A DNA stretch of 54,102 bases from Nitrososphaeraceae archaeon. GTDB lineage: Archaea > Thermoproteota > Nitrososphaeria > Nitrososphaerales > Nitrososphaeraceae. Each line of letters begins with the position of its first letter. Position 1 is the stretch's first letter. Below the pieces are notes generated by a model. The model was not told the origin of the DNA. It made no database searches and saw only the letters and a program-made list of their open reading frames with translations. Positions 40,615 to 49,658 of the stretch are shown one piece after another. The stretch spans positions 1 to 54,102 of the forward strand of contig DATGZA010000060.1 in the NCBI GenBank assembly GCA_035297365.1. The letters run 5' to 3'. The translations under genes were made by a program, and so were the position numbers.

Positions 40615-41583
40615 ACAAGAACAGGTTATCAGTAATACTATTATTATTTTGCTAAAAAAAGAAATGATTTTTTGATATTAGTCTTGTCGAATGGTAAAAA
40701 TATTTAGCAATATTTATTTCAAAATTCCTTGTTAACATCTAAAATCTTTATAAAATTTACAGTTTATCTTTCGATGTGTTTAAAGATTGATCTTGAAACG
40801 ATTATAACCTTACTGAAATGAATTTATGATGTGGATTAATCGAATCCTTACTTTTTCTAAAATTTCAGGTTTATCTATAACAAGAATCGAAATAACTCAA
40901 TATAAATTTCCTCTTAATAATCTCTAGGGATCCGATTTGACCAAAATAAGATATTACACTATTACACTGTTTTGTTACTCGTTTCTTAGATTTTTAGTTT
41001 ATTGTATCGTATACTTAACATTTTGAAGCTATGATACTCATTCAAACATAAAAGGAATCGAGTTTTCAACACATCATTTGAAGAAACTCTGAGGTTATCT
41101 AAGTCATAACAAACATTGAATATACATATCATAATAATATAGATATGAAACAATTATCGAGTTTTTTATAACATCATAAAATTATATCAAGATCTCTTTT
41201 TGTAGGCATTAATAAGAATAGATCTAGAAAGTAATCACAAAAGAGTGATCCATACTACTATTTTTGTATTTTGTCACATACTTTGTTTGTATTTTCCTTA
41301 CATTTTGGACTATGTCGCCAGCTTCCATTCATAAAGTATTCAAGGTGTTTATCTTTGTTATTATCAAATACAACTCGAGTCTCACCATTTTTTGATGATT
41401 TGAATTTACTAAAAATTTCTATTTTTTTCATAATATTTTATTATTTAATGATAATAAGAACGTTGATAGGCAATTTTATTCTCTTTTCGTCGTTGTATAA
41501 ATAAAGATTAACAATAATTTCGAATTTTGTAGAAATTTACTCTAAAAAAGGTCATATTATATATCCCTTATTTATAAATAATA

Positions 41584-41904
41584 ATGGTCATTTTGATACC
41601 AAATAATTATCCTATGAGAGAATGGCATGTAAAAAATATGGAAAAAACAGTTGTTAAATATTTGACAGGTCTTCCAGAAAATGCTTCTCCATATCAGAAA
41701 CGACTTTTCAAAAAATATGGTGGTTTTAATAAAGTTTGTAATCGTATCAAATACGATATAAAACACGGTGTAAAAAATGAGGAAATTGTTTTATTTTTAG
41801 AAAAAATAAAAACTGATTCAGATTTTTCTGATTTAAGAAAATTAGAAGGTTATCCAGATAGAATAAACGAGATTGAGACAAAGTTTAATGACATACATTT
41901 TTAA
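41584..41904 (+). CDS. Conserved hypothetical protein, paralogue of 17391-17720
   Basis: NNYPMREWHVKNMEKTVVKYLTGL...YDIKHGV. Confidence 0.8.
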   Translation: MVILIPNNYPMREWHVKNMEKTVVKYLTGLPENASPYQKRLFKKYGGFNKVCNRIKYDIKHGVKNEEIVLFLEKIKTDSDFSDLRKLEGYPDRINEIETKFNDIHF

Positions 41905-41957
41905 CAAGGTAATAGAAATCAAATCTGAAAATTTGAATACTATAAACGGTTTTTAAA

Positions 41958-42176
41958 ATGACATGTAAGGGCATATGCTTACGACACAAAGCATTAAAAC
42001 CTAAAAATGGTCAGCGTTACATATTAGGTCAAAAACGTTGTCAGATATGCAATATTTTCATTATGTGGCCTATTGCAACATGTCCTTGTTGTGGAGGACG
42101 GTTAAGAACTAGACCACGAAATGGAAAGTACAAATCGATGTTAAATGAAAGTATAATACACAGTCGGATATTGTAG
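41958..42176 (+). CDS. Small basic Cys-rich protein of a type common in Nitrososphaerota
   Basis: MTCKGIC.RHKA, GQKRCQIC, CPCCG.RLRTRPR. Confidence 0.8.
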   Translation: MTCKGICLRHKALKPKNGQRYILGQKRCQICNIFIMWPIATCPCCGGRLRTRPRNGKYKSMLNESIIHSRIL

Positions 42177-43343
42177 GTAGTAGTCTCCTTAAATAATACC
42201 TTAGGTGCAATTTAATATTCAATTTATTACAAATTCCAGAACCAGAATAGAAATATTCAAGATATTTTGTATAAGTAGAAAGCTTAAAGCGATATTTCTT
42301 TTCTCTACCACAATTGTTTATAGATTTCCTTAATCATCATAGATTATTGTTTAGATCATTTACTGGATTGGAATCATCTGAATTTGATTCTATTTCCAAT
42401 GAAATAGAATCAAAATATCCAAAATAGGAGATAAAACGTTTGTTTAAGCAAAAGAACAAGATCGTTAGATGCAGGAAGACATTTCAAAGATTCAGCTGAA
42501 GTCAGATTCATAATGTTTCTTGTGCTTTACAAATAATACATAATTGACTTTTTCATATAAGGATTCTTGTTTGAGTTAGATCAATGCAATGTATATAGAG
42601 ATATACGATATATTGAACTTCCAGTAAGAAGCCGTGTTCCGCTGCCTCAAAATCTATACAATCCTACAACAGGATCAAGAACAGTAGGCGGAAGATATTT
42701 CATCTTAACGATACTACCTATTATCTATTCTGACGTAAAATGTATTTACCATTGTAAAATATATCAGTACACTTATGACAGATGCCAGGATACCACATAC
42801 ATACTTTCAAGATTAATCTCGATGCCATTGCTCTTGAAGTTTAGCTCTGAACATTTCACCACAGAGCCATAATTAACATGAATTTTTTACAGAACTCAAA
42901 ATAAATGTCGACAATTTTGCTAGGTAACATATCAAAAATAGAGTTTACCTCGGCAGAAAATATTTTTGATATGGATTATTTGATTATGATTATGATTATG
43001 TAACCGATTGTTATTATTATTCGCTATACTCTAAAGTCGATCCCAGAAAATACAAATATAATACATACAAACTTATCTTACCTAATGTTCTCTCAATTTC
43101 GGATAAACTTAAATATGGCAGGATATTCTCAGCTTTAGTCTTTCCTCTGCTCAACCTAATAATACGTCGAGATAATTATATATACATTTAAAGAAATACT
43201 TTTTGGAGCTTATAATAGATACATATATGATTAAAATTATTCCAAAGTACGAGGATCATACTTTAATAAGACAAATATGTTAATAATATTAAAAAATAAA
43301 TGTTATATTAATACGTTGTAGTATCAATGCATCTTAATAAAAG

Positions 43344-43361
43344 TTTTTCGGCGCCGAAAAA
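43344..43361. promoter_or_regulatory. Palindromic operator-like site, copy 1
   Basis: Perfect palindrome TTTTTCGGCGCCGAAAAA about 90 bp upstream of the 88-aa gene. Confidence 0.7.
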
Positions 43362-43451
43362 TTGCTTGATGAGATTTAGAATTTTGATAATATATATAAT
43401 TAGTATATAATTAGAGGATCAAATTTAAATATGTGACTCATTATTAGTTAA

Positions 43452-43718
43452 TTGATGGTTACACAATTAGGTGAAATCAGACGTGTAATTGTGGAAGATA
43501 AAGGTAAAAAAGCGAAGATCTTATTCGATCCTGCTGGGACAACAACACCACCTCTATGGTTAAAACTGTCAAATGACAGTACGAGTTCATTTGTAGCAAT
43601 GGTATCAGCTGCTTGTACGGGATTTATCTATGGTGGTCCTGTATTCGGCGGTCCACATGTGCACGTAACATACGACACTGGCGACAACGAAGTTGATGAA
43701 ATACAGATACATCGTTAG
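43452..43718 (+). CDS. Small hypothetical protein (possible OB-fold)
   Basis: Clean ORF; TATA-like TTTAAAT upstream and pyrimidine tract downstream; ATG at 43455 is the likelier start. Confidence 0.75.
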   Translation: MMVTQLGEIRRVIVEDKGKKAKILFDPAGTTTPPLWLKLSNDSTSSFVAMVSAACTGFIYGGPVFGGPHVHVTYDTGDNEVDEIQIHR

Positions 43719-43720
43719 AA

Positions 43721-43739
43721 CTTCCCCTTTCTTTTTTTT
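43721..43739 (+). terminator. Archaeal-type pyrimidine/T-rich terminator
   Basis: TTCCCCTTTCTTTTTTTT directly after the stop codon. Confidence 0.5.
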
Positions 43740-45339
43740 GAAGTTGGTGATATCTAGTTTGGAACAGAAATGAGATAGTTGAAGTTGAGATATAACCCAC
43801 TTAAATCATATTATGCTAATAGCAGGATGGAAATAAGATTATTAACATATTAAATTGTATACAGAGGGGTTTAATGAAAATAATGCTTAGTTATAAAAAT
43901 TAATTTATAATATGAACAATATGTCTAAATAATTGAATAATAAATTATTTTAATATTGGATAATAATAATAATAACAATACAAAAAAATCTGAATTTATT
44001 CCAGTACATTTATTGAAATAGATATAGATTCAAAAAATATTTTAATTTCAGATGGATAATCACATGTAATCACATGGTAATTTATATTCATTGATTTAAC
44101 AATAAAACTTCAGACTATAGTCAAATCCGATCACATCAGGATTAAAAGCGATAGCGGTACCAAAATAAGCGTCTAACGTCACTATAAAAGCAATATTTTT
44201 TAGCAATTATTAGAAATGATAATAGGACTTTTATAATTGCAGAGACATGTATGAAAAAGTAATTATATAATTTATTATAGATCAGTTGTTCAAATTACTA
44301 CATCGAATCATTTTTTCTCCCATTTATTTTATTTACTCTATCATTTTTTATAATATTCTTTTAAATCTTATTTTCTAATTTCTTTAATAAATCTCATGGC
44401 ATATCCCTTTTCATAGTTAACAATTTCCTGACGATAAAAATTATACTTTATTAGATTCTATTATATTGTATGTAGTTTATTCGTAACAATTTAGAACAGA
44501 ATGACTTTAAAGAATAAAACAAGTGGTATGGAATGTTTTTGCTAGGAGAAGATTCAATATGACTATTGAAAAGATTTACCATCCAATTTATTTAATCAAT
44601 GAATAAGCAAATTCCATGAAAATTTATTTATCTATGTTAATTTATTCTCTAGATGAAAGAAATCAACAAGACTGATTATTATAATAATAATAATGATGTT
44701 GATGTTACATTTCTGAAATTACTAATTGAATCAATAGAATATGCGGATTTTCAAATACGTTCAGAACCCTTAATCAATTTTTGATTGATGATGAAAAACC
44801 TATGTTAATTCATACAGGCCATATAGACATGTAAAAAATATAAGAAAAATAAAAGAAGTTTTCACTTTGGTGAAAGTTAGCATATGTATCCTTTTTACGC
44901 TTTGAAAATGACAAATGTGGTAGAATGACATTTTCAGAATTTGCTGATCCAAAATTAGTATGCAGCGATTTAAGTTCAAATCTCAATATAATGGGATAGT
45001 ATAAGATTCCGGTAGACCATATAGCAGTTTGGGATATAGTGTAATACAGTATGATATCATTCCTACAGAAATTTATAGAATTGCACAAATATACACCATA
45101 TGCAAAAAGGGTTATTTTCCTCTGTCTCTATATAAAATGCGATCATTGGTAATATATTTACACCAGAAAAAAGTCAGATAAATATTATATAATACACAAA
45201 TAAGATATTGTTTAATTTTACAGTCAAAAGCATTTATCTTCGCAATTAAATTAATCATCAACCTGAGAGTTAACTAACAATTATAGTGATTACATCTTTC
45301 ATAGAAAAAGAAAAAAATGTGATTTATATAATAATTTCT

Positions 45340-46336: not shown

Positions 46337-46789
46337 CTAAATCTGATCTAAATAAAGGTATTTACCGAATTCACTCCCGAGCCATATTCCAGGTGCATCT
46401 ATACCAGCATTTCCAGGAACTGGTCCATGAAATAGTCCGTATGTTGTAACAGGTGGGCCACCTTCTGATATTTTTACGGTAACGTTCTTAACCAGCCATT
46501 TTTTATTCGAATCGTAGCAAAGGTACACGCTATATTTTGTATTGTTTACATCACTAATATCTATTCTAATGGGCTTTGTTGGATTATTTTTATCTGGGTT
46601 ATTTACTGTCGAATTGGTGTCATTTTCATCTAGAACAAAATCATCTATATCCGCTCTTTCGAATGTATTGTCACCACTTCTAGCCAATCTAAACTCTCTA
46701 TTTCCAACACCTAAATAAACCGGACCGTCAGCGTCAGCTCCACTTTCATCTGCTGTTTCTATATGTACTTCTATTCTTCTTATATGCAT
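46337..46789 (-). CDS. Stand-alone PLAT/LH2-like beta-sandwich protein
   Basis: V.IETAD.SGADADGPVYLG, FERADIDDF, WLVKNVTV, WL: matches the PLAT consensus (TGD..GAGTD..VYL, FERG..D.F, W....V.V). Confidence 0.7.
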   Translation of the reverse strand: MHIRRIEVHIETADESGADADGPVYLGVGNREFRLARSGDNTFERADIDDFVLDENDTNSTVNNPDKNNPTKPIRIDISDVNNTKYSVYLCYDSNKKWLVKNVTVKISEGGPPVTTYGLFHGPVPGNAGIDAPGIWLGSEFGKYLYLDQI

Positions 46790-46888
46790 TACATATTTAT
46801 TACATTACTTATCTTTAAATATGATCCTCTAATCATAGACCCATATTACTAAATATATTTATCATATTATTCAATGTTAAACAAAAAT

Positions 46889-46906
46889 TTTTTCGGCGCC
46901 GAAAAA
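46889..46906. promoter_or_regulatory. Palindromic operator-like site, copy 2
   Basis: Perfect TTTTTCGGCGCCGAAAAA between the divergent PLAT-like gene and the peptide-tyrosinase unit. Confidence 0.7.
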
Positions 46907-47511
46907 TTACAATAAAACATTAGATCTTATAATCAATAGGATGGCTATAATTGGTCAGATATATGCCATCCTGTTGTCAATTACCCATCTTTTGTGTAAT
47001 GATATAATTATATGGTATTTGTATTATTTATTATATTTGGTAACAAAAGTACTGCATAAGAAGTATGGTCCTCTCTATAATATAACGATCCTATTTTGGT
47101 ATGTCTTTTTATCAATCGTAATATCCTACTTTTTCCGTTAGAGATTTCAAATGTAATAGTATCATTTTCCATTAAATTTAGAGAAAAAGCATATATTGAT
47201 ACTCAATTATAGCCGAAGGTCTAATAACCGTTATACTATTCAATTTCATATTGTACATTGATCCAAATAAAATATGTTATATAATTTAACCTTAGATATT
47301 AATTAGATTCAATGACTTAGGGTTTTACACATTATATGACTATAATATATTATCTAAATGAGTTCGGAAAATGAGTTACCTAAAATGACATTTTCTAATT
47401 ATTGTAATATAATATATATTTTATAGAAATAATATATTATTTACATGAACAATTGCAATTTCTATAAAATTACGAATATCTTTATATAATTTAACTTGTT
47501 GCTCATATAAC

Positions 47512-47727
47512 ATGGAATCAGCAAACAAGACGCTGACCGATGAAGAGATGAAAAATTTGGCAAAATTATATTGGGCAAATGCAAAACGATCCCAGAAGAA
47601 ATCAAGAAAACTAAGTCTTGATAAAATGCCAGGAGAAGAAGAGATGGAATCCGAGTCTATGGGTAAAATGCCAGGAGAAGAAGAAGAGATGGAATCTGAG
47701 TCTATGGGTAAAATGCCAGGAGAGTGA
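47512..47727 (+). CDS. 71-aa peptide with Met/Glu-rich tandem repeats (candidate tyrosinase copper partner)
   Basis: Basic/helical N-half, then KMPGEEE(E)MESESMG twice plus KMPGE. TATA-like TTTATATA upstream; ends 6 bp before the tyrosinase ATG. Confidence 0.75.
   Translation: MESANKTLTDEEMKNLAKLYWANAKRSQKKSRKLSLDKMPGEEEMESESMGKMPGEEEEMESESMGKMPGE
47622..47724. repeat. In-frame 42/45-bp tandem repeat
   Basis: TAAAATGCCAGGAGA starts at 47622, 47664 and 47709. Units differ by one GAA codon and one synonymous change (TCC/TCT). Confidence 0.92.
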
Positions 47728-47733
47728 AAAAAG

Positions 47734-48699
47734 ATGGGACATAGAAGAGATTTGAATAGTCTTAGTGCAGCTGACAGAACTGCCCTTGTCAACTTGATGC
47801 TAAATTATATCAATGATGATATAGTATGGCAACATAATCCTCTTAATCCAAACGCAATAGTTCACCATGAAGGCGAACATGCATTCATTACACACAGAAA
47901 CTTTATTGGAGATTTAGAATCATGGCTTGCTTCACATGGTGGAAGCAAATTTGTTCCTTTACCAATGTGGGATCCTGGTAATTCAATTCCTTCTGAGTTT
48001 AATGTTGTAAAGCCTCAGGACAATAGCACTCCACGCCCACCTTTACAAAATCTTAATCCCAATATACCAAAACCTGCAAATCTAAATTCACCAGCATTAT
48101 GCACCTTGACAACTAACGGGGATATACTTTGGAATAATCATGTTGATGGGTGGCATGGCGCAGTTCATGTTACAATTGGTGGTACTATGGGAGATATTAC
48201 AATAGCACCGGCTGCACCAATATTTTTCTGTTGGCACGGATTTGTGGATGAAATCTATGAAGACTATCTAACATGTCGCTGGAGTGGATGGGAGGACCTT
48301 GGTGGTATAATTACATCTGCACCTTCTGTGGCTTCATGGGCAGCTAATCGTTTGGATTGTTTTGTCAGAGGGCAAGACTCTCATATGTGGCACAAATGGT
48401 GGAACGGTTCAAGCTGGAGTGGATGGGAGGACCTTGGTGGTAAAATCACGGCTGCGCCTGCTGTTGCCTCAAGAGGAACAAACAGATTGGATTGCTTTGT
48501 TAAAGGTCAAGATAATGCCTTGTGGTACAAGTGGATAGATAGTTCAGTAGTTCATGGTCACCCAGGAGTTTGGAGTGGCTGGCATTCTTTAGGGGGGATT
48601 CTTGACAACGCGCCTGCCGCAGTATCTTGGGGTCCAAACCGTATAGACTGTTTCGTCCGAGGAATGAACAACCATATGTGGCACAAATGGAGGGCATAA
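47734..48699 (+). CDS. Tyrosinase (type-3 copper) domain fused to three PLL/fucose-lectin-type beta-propeller repeats
   Basis: RRDLNSLS start; CuA candidates WQH, VHH, FITHR; LPMWD; CuB HGAVH..IGG.M...P..PIFFCWH..VD. Repeats WSGWEDLGG..T.AP.VASW..NRLDCFVRG.D.HMWHKW. Confidence 0.88.
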   Translation: MGHRRDLNSLSAADRTALVNLMLNYINDDIVWQHNPLNPNAIVHHEGEHAFITHRNFIGDLESWLASHGGSKFVPLPMWDPGNSIPSEFNVVKPQDNSTPRPPLQNLNPNIPKPANLNSPALCTLTTNGDILWNNHVDGWHGAVHVTIGGTMGDITIAPAAPIFFCWHGFVDEIYEDYLTCRWSGWEDLGGIITSAPSVASWAANRLDCFVRGQDSHMWHKWWNGSSWSGWEDLGGKITAAPAVASRGTNRLDCFVKGQDNALWYKWIDSSVVHGHPGVWSGWHSLGGILDNAPAAVSWGPNRIDCFVRGMNNHMWHKWRA

Positions 48700-49229
48700 T
48701 ACTATATTCTATTTCTTCACCTTCCTTTTTTGTCCCATATTAATTTGTGTATGATTAATGTATAGTAGGTATTGAAAGAATAAGAAACAATGAATCATTG
48801 TATATTTTAAATGCAGTCACATCTCTGTTAGAAGAAAAGTTATGACATATCTACCCTTAAAATAGACATATTATCTCATAATAAGTTGTAATCTCACATT
48901 TAAATTTGATAAATGCGTCAGATTCTTTAAATGTGTTTATCACTCGTTTCAATGTAACACCTTCTTTCAGCAGATATATTTCTATTAAACTAACTCATTA
49001 AAGAAAGAAATAAAGATGTTAATTTTTACATCGATAGAATTCAGTAATGAAAAAGAAACCAAAAAACTAATGGAACTGTTAGAGGAAAATTAATTTAACA
49101 CGTTAATTCTTACACATTCAAACGGAGGTGTGTCAACTGTTTTTAACACAATTTTGTAGTTCACAAATAGAAAATACTTAACCGATGAAAAGAATATAAT
49201 AATTAAAAAATATACACTCTGTTAATTAT

Positions 49230-49658
49230 ATGAATTCAAATGAAATTGCTGATATCTTAGATGTTGTTGTGATTCCTATTGTGGTAGTACTAATTGCACT
49301 CCTTTGGTCAGATATTCAATCTTGGCATAGAAAAAGAAAATTTAAAAATTTAATTTGTAGAGAATTAGAAGAATTAAAGCCGCCAAAAAAGAAAGATCCA
49401 GAAAAAAATTGGAATGAACATTTTAATAAAAGATTAATTCATCGTGAGATTTTTAATAATGTCGCCGAAAATCGTGACTTTATTCTCAGCCTTGATCCTG
49501 ATTTAGTTTATTATGTCAGCAACTTATGGAATGCTTATGATAATTCAGATTATGAACAATTCAAATACTATCTAACTAAAATTTTATCTCATTATGAGGT
49601 AAAAAATTCAGAATCTATTAAAGAGAAATGGGAAAATCTATTAAATAACAAGAATTAA
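49230..49658 (+). CDS. Hypothetical protein with one N-terminal TM helix
   Basis: VVVIPIVVVLIALLW followed by basic RKRKFK and a helical domain. Confidence 0.7.
   Translation: MNSNEIADILDVVVIPIVVVLIALLWSDIQSWHRKRKFKNLICRELEELKPPKKKDPEKNWNEHFNKRLIHREIFNNVAENRDFILSLDPDLVYYVSNLWNAYDNSDYEQFKYYLTKILSHYEVKNSESIKEKWENLLNNKN

Follow-up and report, generated by a model that had tools for sequence, protein, structure and literature searches.

A Met-Pro-Gly-Glu repeat peptide encoded ahead of a tyrosinase-lectin fusion in an ammonia-oxidising archaeon and in soil bacteria: a candidate partner of the enzyme

What is the role of a short repeat peptide rich in methionine and glutamate when its gene lies directly ahead of a tyrosinase gene? 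Tyrosinases need copper loading and safe keeping, and the known solutions are the caddie protein of Streptomyces and covalent lid domains. The question is raised by a 54,102-nt stretch of DNA from a Nitrososphaeraceae archaeon (GCA_035297365.1, contig DATGZA010000060.1, positions 1 to 54,102; the whole stretch is referred to as the window). In it, an open reading frame (ORF) for a 71-aa peptide (47512..47727, forward strand) is followed by the gene for a 321-aa fusion of a tyrosinase with a PLL-type lectin (47734..48699, forward strand). A preliminary description of the locus, made from the sequence, had taken the two genes for a unit and the peptide for a possible small caddie with expandable copper capacity.

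The in-frame repeats of KMPGE(E)EEMESESMG reported in that description are confirmed by reading of the ORF, as is the spacing: the TGA of the peptide ends at 47727 and the ATG of the tyrosinase begins at 47734, which leaves a gap of 6 nt. The peptide carries an aromatic-x-A-x-A motif, Y20-W-A-N-A24 (47569..47583, +), the window version of the F-R-A-T-A or F-Q-E-S-A of its relatives, and then G-K-M-P-G-E units, the pattern called type A below. Unit 1 (47623-47664, +, 14 codons) is K-M-P-G-E-E-E-M-E-S-E-S-M-G, unit 2 (47665-47709, +, 15 codons) is unit 1 plus one Glu, and unit 3 (47710-47724, +) is K-M-P-G-E followed directly by the stop codon. Tandem Repeats Finder places the repeat at 47622-47723, with 93% matches over 2.3 copies of period 45. 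Unit 2 departs from unit 1 by an additional GAA codon and a single synonymous change (tcc/tct), as had been noted, and unit 3 bears a synonymous gaa/gag. The composition is also as previously given, with 7 of the 9 Met in the repeat half and a single Tyr; there is one Trp, no His and no Cys, and neither a signal peptide nor a hydrophobic N-terminal stretch was found in the peptide. The pattern MP[SGE][GE] occurs 18 times in the six-frame ORFs of at least 40 aa of the 2.52 Mb genome (1.53 M residues). The peptide ORF is the sole frame of the whole genome with two or more copies, and the sole frame of the window with any.

The association of this gene with the enzyme is widely conserved. Databases contain 57 relatives of the copper domain; identity is 69-81% for the closest, and most have the same DUF346/PLL repeats. 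Forty-five loci with relatives were examined, 5 from genomes and 40 from metagenomes (locus, genome and peptide numbers with L, G and P are working labels, G000 being the window's own genome). Close PLL-type fusions are found at 38 of them, and 37 are informative once L027, with only 101 nt upstream, is left out. The preliminary description had held that homologous tyrosinases without an upstream ORF would speak against a unit; a small upstream ORF on the same strand, ending in (K/Q/R)-M-P-(G/E)-E, was found at 36 of the 37. These include a KVPEE variant (L051), 5'-truncated copies (L028, L030, L039 and L053) and L050, where the frame runs off the contig end and an ATG start is present. The 37th locus, L052, has a diverged acidic ORF with E-E-M-P-E-G-E. 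The gap between peptide and tyrosinase is -11 to +13 nt in most loci, the longer ones being 33 nt (L062), 39 nt (L052), 111 nt (L055) and 594 nt (L026 and L036). The PLL-type loci span GC contents of 0.37-0.72, and two are in bins titled Chloroflexia and Gaiellaceae. Leaving aside the peptide, the enzyme and the enzyme's antisense shadow, ORF clusters are common to 7 loci at most. With no conserved neighbour besides them, the two genes make up, as far as sequence comparison can tell, a two-gene cassette.

The peptide is also under purifying selection. Of 19 peptide pairs 2 are saturated, and the dN/dS of the remaining 17 is 0.11-0.43; between the window peptide and that of L031 it is 0.18. Low values of this kind indicate that the ORF is translated, and the 71-aa ORF is, by its substitution pattern, a real translated gene, as the form of its repeats had suggested earlier. 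A profile of the peptide finds one place only in the archaeon's own genome. Among 401 genomes of the class of G062 one was matched, at a site adjoining the tyrosinase of that genome.

As first described, this archaeon encodes a tyrosinase fused to a lectin; Pfam, homology to PLL and the archaeal amoA in the genome all agree with this. Residues 1-182 (47734..48279, +) are a short type-3 copper (tyrosinase) domain, recognised by Pfam Tyrosinase (PF00264; 53.9 bits against a cut-off of 22.6, E 4e-14), by invariant columns and by alignment to the Streptomyces tyrosinase 1wx2. H141, H145 and H168 align with the three His in the CuB stretch of 1wx2, and H54 aligns with the one in its P-W-H-R stretch. 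We take H141, H145 and H168 to be CuB ligands and H54 and, nine residues ahead of it, H45 to be CuA ligands; H34, from its position, may be the first CuA His. Of the 26 sequences compared, all have H49, H54, H141, H145 and H168, and at least 90% have H34 and H45. The six His ligands of a type-3 copper site thus appear to be present in the window enzyme. Markers for monophenolase activity are an Asn after the first CuB His and a water-keeper Glu. The window enzyme has neither of them, with Gly142 after H141 and Asp138 where 1wx2 has Glu (N-H-L-E-G-W). Neither a lid domain nor a signal peptide was found in the enzyme.

Residues 183-321, with the stop codon (48280..48699, +), form by homology three blades of a PLL-type lectin beta-propeller. 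The C-terminal 140 aa match PLL-family lectins of solved structure (8q7u, E 1.5e-102; PHL, 3.5e-82; PLL2, 1.7e-76), and the family profile matches PLL with E 6.5e-75. Each of the three window blades keeps the two pocket Trp residues (that of M/L-W-H and the second one of WSGW) and the G-G-x backbone. A single chain of seven blades is found neither in the window enzyme (3) nor in its relatives (4 or 6), and a three-blade chain would need oligomerisation to close the propeller. The blade number varies: the window has 3, complete loci have 4 or 6, and protein lengths suggest 2, 3, 4 or 6. Some of these counts may reflect assembly collapse, since the enzyme of L026 has 367 aa and that of L036 has 457 aa despite identical upstream DNA. 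One contig from an RNA library also joins 48313 to 48613, in the propeller part.

Two types of peptide can be distinguished (alignment A2). Type A includes those of the window, L026, L029/L030, L031, L054, L055, L061/L028 and L062. It has F/Y-R/W-A-T/N-A and then 2-7 units of G-(K/R/M/L)-M-P-G-E-(E/Q) with unrelated spacers. Type B, the majority, reads F-Q-E-S-A-K-K-F-K-P-G-P-V-A-P-P-E ... D-M-S-G ... M-S-D-G-x-P-G-x-L-x-K-M-P-G-E. A24, G41, M53 and P54 (window numbering) are invariant in both types, and at residue 20 at least 90% of the rows have F (Tyr in the window peptide). The peptide profile collects 53 clusters at 90% identity. None of these has a name or a Pfam family; F.ESAKKFK is found in 49 of them, DMSG in 48, MSDG.PG in 50 and MPGE in 48. 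In most members there is a single canonical MPGE, with about 4 Met. The mean is 4.4 Met in 84 residues, against 9 in 71 for the window peptide, and the distance from the motif to the stop codon is 0 to 12 residues. The window peptide matched no Pfam family at E up to 0.1 and is an unnamed singleton in NCBI nr. In NCBIfam the L031, L038 and window peptides had no family, and those of L061 and L029 had no match below E 0.09. An exhaustive profile search of 1.84 billion representatives gave 10 matches, all of 40-102 aa and none a fusion, and a word search for the peptide fused within longer proteins found none, itself weak evidence. Matches in the ESM Atlas are at or below 0.81 and only to unnamed clusters; the Atlas model of the peptide has a pLDDT of 0.44, and the peptide is predicted to be intrinsically disordered.

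A motif resembling a leader, followed by 1-7 short repeats with fast-evolving spacers, is also what would be expected of the precursor of a RiPP (a ribosomally synthesised peptide modified post-translationally). The N-terminal part would be the leader and the MPGE units the cores, modified non-phenolically at Met, Pro or Glu by the copper enzyme, with the propeller as the peptide-binding domain. The whole module is in fact repeated in L029 and L061. Ustiloxin-type systems have Tyr-containing cores between Kex2 sites, a signal peptide and a requirement for DUF3328 oxidases; none of these is found here. The likeness to the ustiloxin-type (dikaritin) RiPPs of fungi, as presented in an excerpt of one paper, is that precursors with many repeated cores are encoded beside tyrosinases (PMC7329392). 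In the family described here Tyr is found in 3 of 53 members and Cys in 1 of 53, neither of them in any MPGE unit, and most members have a single canonical unit. Searches nearby found no conserved protease, transporter, RiPP recognition element or other maturation gene, and the peptide has no signal peptide and no cleavage motif. To our knowledge no type-3 copper enzyme modifies Met, Pro, Gly or Glu. The preliminary description was right to hold this alternative weak, and we consider it very unlikely.

With which part of the enzyme does the peptide go? A motif-bearing ORF was found at none of the 12 loci with other tyrosinases. Four of the 12 encode a short copper domain of the same clade (listed identity to the query 36-58%) joined to other C-terminal domains: beta/gamma-crystallin (L023/L069 and L024/L070), FG-GAP (L060) and an unnamed repeat (L059). 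Because these same-clade tyrosinases have no peptide, the peptide appears to accompany the PLL propeller and not the copper domain as such. The coupling of peptide and tyrosinase claimed earlier is borne out as far as the cassette is concerned, and corrected in that the peptide tracks the propeller. One of the four is uninformative in this respect: upstream of the crystallin-fused tyrosinase of L070, from a Nitrosospira bin, the reverse strand at 900-1330 resembles a transposase gene, by reading only. Further non-lectin relatives were sought around the Nitrosospira genome, and only that genome (1 of 151) had one.

The same motif is found in cis in another kind of enzyme. PLL-type repeats occur in 32 of the 238 genomes of the archaeon's family, in which enzyme-lectin fusions seem to be a theme, and in two other genera of it MP[SG][GE] clusters lie at the N-terminus of astacin (M12A)-PLL fusions. 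The protein of G025 (L009:1042-3120, reverse strand, contig C1) has E-D-Q-I-G-K-M-P-S-G-L-D-D-F three times, and in that of G388 (L111:526-2550, reverse strand, contig C28) there are four copies of G-K-A-G-E-M-P-S-G-E-M. Identity between the two proteins is 54%; their G-x-M-P-S-G units align and the rest of the repeat differs. In both, the MPSG repeats sit N-terminal to an F-E-G-D-I motif and the Pfam astacin domain (in astacins the Asp of F-x-G-D has a switch role). Each of the two chains consists of the repeats, the astacin domain and seven PLL-type blades, with no signal peptide found. Among 16 astacin homologues, MPSG repeats are present in 2 of the 4 flagged with PLL blades and in 0 of the 12 others; in L118 the blade pattern missed one blade-like stretch.

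These observations bear on the small caddie first proposed for the peptide, in which Met thioethers would bind Cu(I) and hand it to the apo-tyrosinase while an aromatic residue acted as active-site placeholder. The gene order is that of melC1-melC2 in Streptomyces, where a small, co-expressed ORF also lies directly upstream of a short tyrosinase without lid or signal peptide and the helper is dedicated to its own enzyme; here the 6-nt gap, the synteny and an RNA-library contig that crosses the junction are the counterparts. MelC1 has a Tat signal and copper-transfer His residues, and Met-rich binders of Cu(I) or Ag(I), e.g., the Mets motifs of Ctr1 and PcoE/SilE, have close MxM, MxxM or HxxM motifs. 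The window peptide is like the latter in being acidic, disordered by prediction and Met-enriched; unlike them, it has the M-P-G-E unit, mostly with one Met per unit, and no His. According to an excerpt of one paper, MelC1 is a folded protein (13 kDa for ScMelC1) that puts a Tyr into the active site, loads copper while plugging that site, and is needed for copper insertion and for secretion (PMC11608171). The peptide differs from it in its predicted disorder, its Met-Pro-Gly-Glu units, the scarcity of a placeholder Tyr and its occurrence only with the lectin-fused form of the enzyme. Membership in the MelC1 family was rejected on sequence, as no match to PF06236 was obtained. Of the parallel drawn with the caddie, the position directly upstream and the conservation with the enzyme therefore stand, while the family match, signal peptide and His are missing.

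The enrichment in Met and the invariance of M53 agree with a chaperone of this kind, and so does an enzyme without lid or signal peptide. The distribution of the Met residues does not: they are mostly 12-30 residues apart, with no MxM or MxxM clusters, and Met is replaced by Leu or Val in some units (L026, L051, P0106 and P0109). The four PLL-free sister tyrosinases are equally copper-dependent and have no peptide, the same motif precedes zinc astacins, and no match to MelC1 or any other family was found. The single MPGE of most members, the Leu and Val variants and the astacin-PLL proteins weaken the idea of an expandable copper capacity that had been suggested, and a copper-delivering peptide we regard as unlikely.

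The explanation we prefer, tentatively and at somewhat less than an even chance, is that the peptide is a disordered, dedicated partner of the enzyme, a pro-segment supplied in trans and detachable, whose Met-Pro units dock on the propeller and mask the enzyme. The repeated (G)-K/R-M-P-G-E units would act as multivalent pseudo-ligands, their Met side chains entering the Trp-lined methyl pockets between the blades, and the aromatic motif (F/Y-x-A-x-A, or F-Q-E-S-A-K-K-F in type B) would rest on the catalytic domain. The enzyme would be kept masked or latent, perhaps with some help in folding or metal loading, until the peptide was displaced, e.g., by the real glycan ligand of the lectin. The peptide would then fill the role of MelC1 or of the lid domain in other tyrosinases. 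A similar masking by an extra segment is found in zymogens, i.e., the astacin pro-peptide and the C-terminal lid of latent tyrosinases and polyphenol oxidases; here the segment is a separate gene product, and its displacement is our proposal.

The idea that Met can occupy such pockets comes from the Photorhabdus lectins. In PHL, as described in excerpts of its structural paper, the C6 methyl of fucose normally lies between two Trp, and in the crystals the fucose sites 2F and 7F are filled by Met side chains, Met60 of a neighbouring molecule in all structures and also Met1 with Gln2 and Pro3 (PMC5584973). An excerpt of a second paper suggests that the hydrophobic PHL sites may not be restricted to carbohydrates (PMC6943638). 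The C-terminal repeats of the window enzyme are homologous to those of PLL, PLL2, PLL3 and PHL and keep the Trp pair of the methyl pocket. Unlike these lectins, which have seven blades and Thr for the fucose hydroxyls, the window protein has 3 blades fused behind an enzyme and Gln or Met in place of the Thr; we know of no partner peptide described for the Photorhabdus proteins.

A number of points weigh against this masking by a separate partner. The occupancy of the PHL sites by Met arises from crystal contacts, and the fucose-binding Thr is Gln, Gln and Met in the three window blades, a pocket chemistry different from that of PHL. The PLL-type tyrosinases are mostly one clade, in which co-occurrence with the propeller is inseparable from shared ancestry, and many of the loci are near-duplicates, leaving about 24 distinct peptides. 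The RNA contigs described below come from a single study, and a contig over two genes is no proof of one transcript. Comparison of the peptide profile with the astacin extensions gave E 0.067 and 0.13 with a probability below 1%; the link between the two is a shared motif of 4-6 residues and not demonstrable homology. Tandem duplication inflates the motif copy numbers in the astacins, and about 1.3 single chance matches were expected in the scanned PLL loci, where 2 stray singles were seen. The module was not found in 2 of the 4 astacin-PLL proteins (L113 and L125), in the S8 peptidase-PLL fusion of Bacillus, in the GH27-PLL fusion of Streptomyces or in 8 stand-alone archaeal PLL lectins. L130 (2830-3711) of the Bacillus cereus plasmid NZ_CP129006.1 encodes an annotated carbohydrate-binding protein of blades only, 47% identical to the window propeller over residues 134-318, with neither a Met-Pro motif in the protein nor an upstream motif ORF. 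The Met-Pro module is not, on this distribution, a general companion of PLL propellers. A prediction of the complex of enzyme (alignment A1) and peptide (A2) scored 0.01 against a mark of 0.32 and is evidence neither way.

A broader form of the masking proposal takes in the astacins. Short repeats of the pattern hydrophobic-Pro-(Gly/Ser)-(Glu/Gly) would plug the methyl pockets of PLL propellers on metalloenzymes as detachable pseudo-ligands, in trans for the tyrosinase and in cis for the astacin, and would leave the enzyme masked until a fucosylated or O-methylated glycan displaced them. We judge this generalisation improbable, to about the same degree as the copper-delivering peptide.

The junction of the two genes allows another role to be considered for the ORF, that of a regulatory leader whose translation, through coupling or through pausing at M-P-G-E, sets the translation of the tyrosinase, the peptide itself being functionless. 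An end of the ORF resembling a Shine-Dalgarno (SD) sequence had been pointed out previously. AGGAGAG does lie within the last Pro-Gly-Glu codons (47718..47724, +), its GGAG core (47719-47722) ending 11 nt ahead of the tyrosinase ATG. Because M-P-G-E codons contain GGNGA, the junction was checked throughout the family. Most bacterial loci have a GGAGG of their own, placed 3' of the MPGE codons and overlapping the stop codon in many of them. No further SD-like sequence is found in the 5-6-nt spacer of the window locus or of the low-GC loci L031 and L054; in these three, an SD function of the final codons or a coupling of translation is possible. Of 1076 long ORFs in the archaeon's own genome 134 are preceded by an SD-like 4-mer, and 76 have one in a control window. 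SD use in this genome is thus modest, and the 16S 3' end was not found in the assembly. The SD-like end is thus plausible in the window and weakened by the separate GGAGG of the bacterial loci and the modest use of SD by the host. That MPGE is a mere footprint of an SD sequence was rejected, as the bacterial GGAGG lies 3' of the motif and the motif is kept where the gap is 33-594 nt.

The very short or overlapping gaps of most loci, with the last MPGE 10-25 nt ahead of the start codon, would suit a regulatory leader, as would the low-GC loci without a separate SD. The MPGE C-terminus is kept, however, at gaps of 33, 111 and 594 nt (L062, L055 and L026/L036), a second motif is conserved 40-60 residues upstream, the distance from motif to stop codon varies, and there are repeats far from the junction. 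The motif is found, moreover, within astacin polypeptides. A functionless leader is for these reasons highly improbable, the least probable of the roles considered here.

Parts of the region are present in four soil metatranscriptome runs of one study. Two RNA libraries have a 614-nt contig (47694-48307) that begins 34 nt before the end of the peptide ORF, crosses the junction and takes in the copper domain, and a third has a 75-nt contig (47645-47719) within the repeat; DNA carry-over is a possible source of such contigs. No contig from the RNA libraries lies over 47512-47644, which carries no weight in either direction. The single transcript suggested earlier is in keeping with contigs that cross the junction, which do not prove it. 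The space between the genes is too small for a promoter, and one was considered ahead of the peptide ATG. There TTTATATAA (47481..47489, +) resembles a TATA box with its centre about 27 nt before the ATG, in very AT-rich surroundings, and is possibly the promoter of a leaderless bicistronic mRNA. A T-rich stretch 3' of the tyrosinase stop codon (48710..48732, +) may be an archaeal terminator.

How did the cassette come to this archaeon? The genome is 97.1% complete and encodes archaeal AmoA (E 4e-118), which identifies the host as an ammonia-oxidising archaeon. The cassette is found in only 1 of the 238 genomes of its family, the window's own. Two other genomes of the family have distant tyrosinases (37-43% identity) without the peptide. 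Among 851 long ORFs (mean GC content 0.330, standard deviation 0.032) the enzyme gene, with 0.433, stands at the 99.3rd percentile; its GC at third codon positions is at the 98.4th percentile, and the propeller part has a GC content of 0.486. From the single occurrence and the outlying GC content, the cassette was likely acquired horizontally. A tree of the tyrosinases is poorly resolved (4 of 20 inner branches starred) and names no donor. Comparison of the flanks of low-GC metagenome loci with the archaeon's genome gave one weak neighbour match (L031), and none of those contigs was called archaeal.

In a cassette that looks mobile the two genes could be linked by co-inheritance only, and the peptide could act on something other than its neighbour, e.g., as a secreted or surface factor or as an unrelated metal buffer. 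The rarity in the family and the GC content fit such a history. Adjacency and order are kept across the whole range of GC contents, in contigs titled as two bacterial phyla and the archaeon, and in the genomes searched the peptide profile matched nowhere but beside a tyrosinase; for these reasons we think a different target quite unlikely.

The surroundings of the cassette offer few other features. It lies in a gene-poor stretch: about 4.7 kb of the window (40615-45285), with 26-30% GC, has no ORF of at least 120 aa on either strand. A 150-aa ORF at 46337-46789 on the reverse strand weakly resembles PLAT/LH2 (21.2 bits, short of the cut-off of 23; E 4.9e-4) and is not conserved beside the cassette elsewhere. 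In L026, and identically in L036, the 594-nt insert between the peptide and tyrosinase genes (L026:2407-3000) contains a 184-aa ORF. PADLOC gave no defence-system match for the peptide, the enzyme, P0058 or the ORF of the L026 spacer. Rfam at E up to 1 gave no match on 46800-49300, and no tRNA genes were found in the window. Elsewhere in the genome, a 1191-aa frame (G000:C91:35057-38632) has a His-rich stretch (H-Q-H-T-F-H-L-H-A-H ... H-C-H-V-F-A-H-M), read as resembling a multicopper oxidase, two copies of T-G-M-M-P and a long tail of poly-Gln/Leu. Apart from the peptide ORF, no frame of the genome but this one has two G-x-M-P matches; it is probably unrelated to the peptide. Astacin homologues without PLL blades (L122, which is G000:C4:2779-3573 of the window's own genome, L120 and L124) have Cys-rich and then Met/Glu-rich tails with a C-P-E-C motif; these tails resemble the window peptide in Met/Glu composition.

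A literature search on tyrosinases with DUF346 or a PLL lectin propeller, on Thaumarchaeota and on caddies in archaea, conducted outside supplementary gene lists, found no description of the cassette. It ties 53 unnamed peptide clusters to an undescribed architecture, a minimal type-3 copper domain of 180 residues with a PLL lectin, and occurs in soil bacteria and in one ammonia-oxidising archaeon. The peptide family is a candidate for a third, unrelated solution to the loading and safety of tyrosinases. If its Met-Pro units bind the propeller, they would be a new kind of peptide ligand for this lectin fold and would make an oxidase conditional on the recognition of a glycan, and co-expression would be a simple handle for the production of small tyrosinases. 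If the generalisation to other metalloenzymes were also true, the system would be a prokaryotic counterpart, in a single polypeptide, of lectin-triggered prophenoloxidase activation, and a two-gene cassette for it would have been passed between soil bacteria and ammonia-oxidising archaea.

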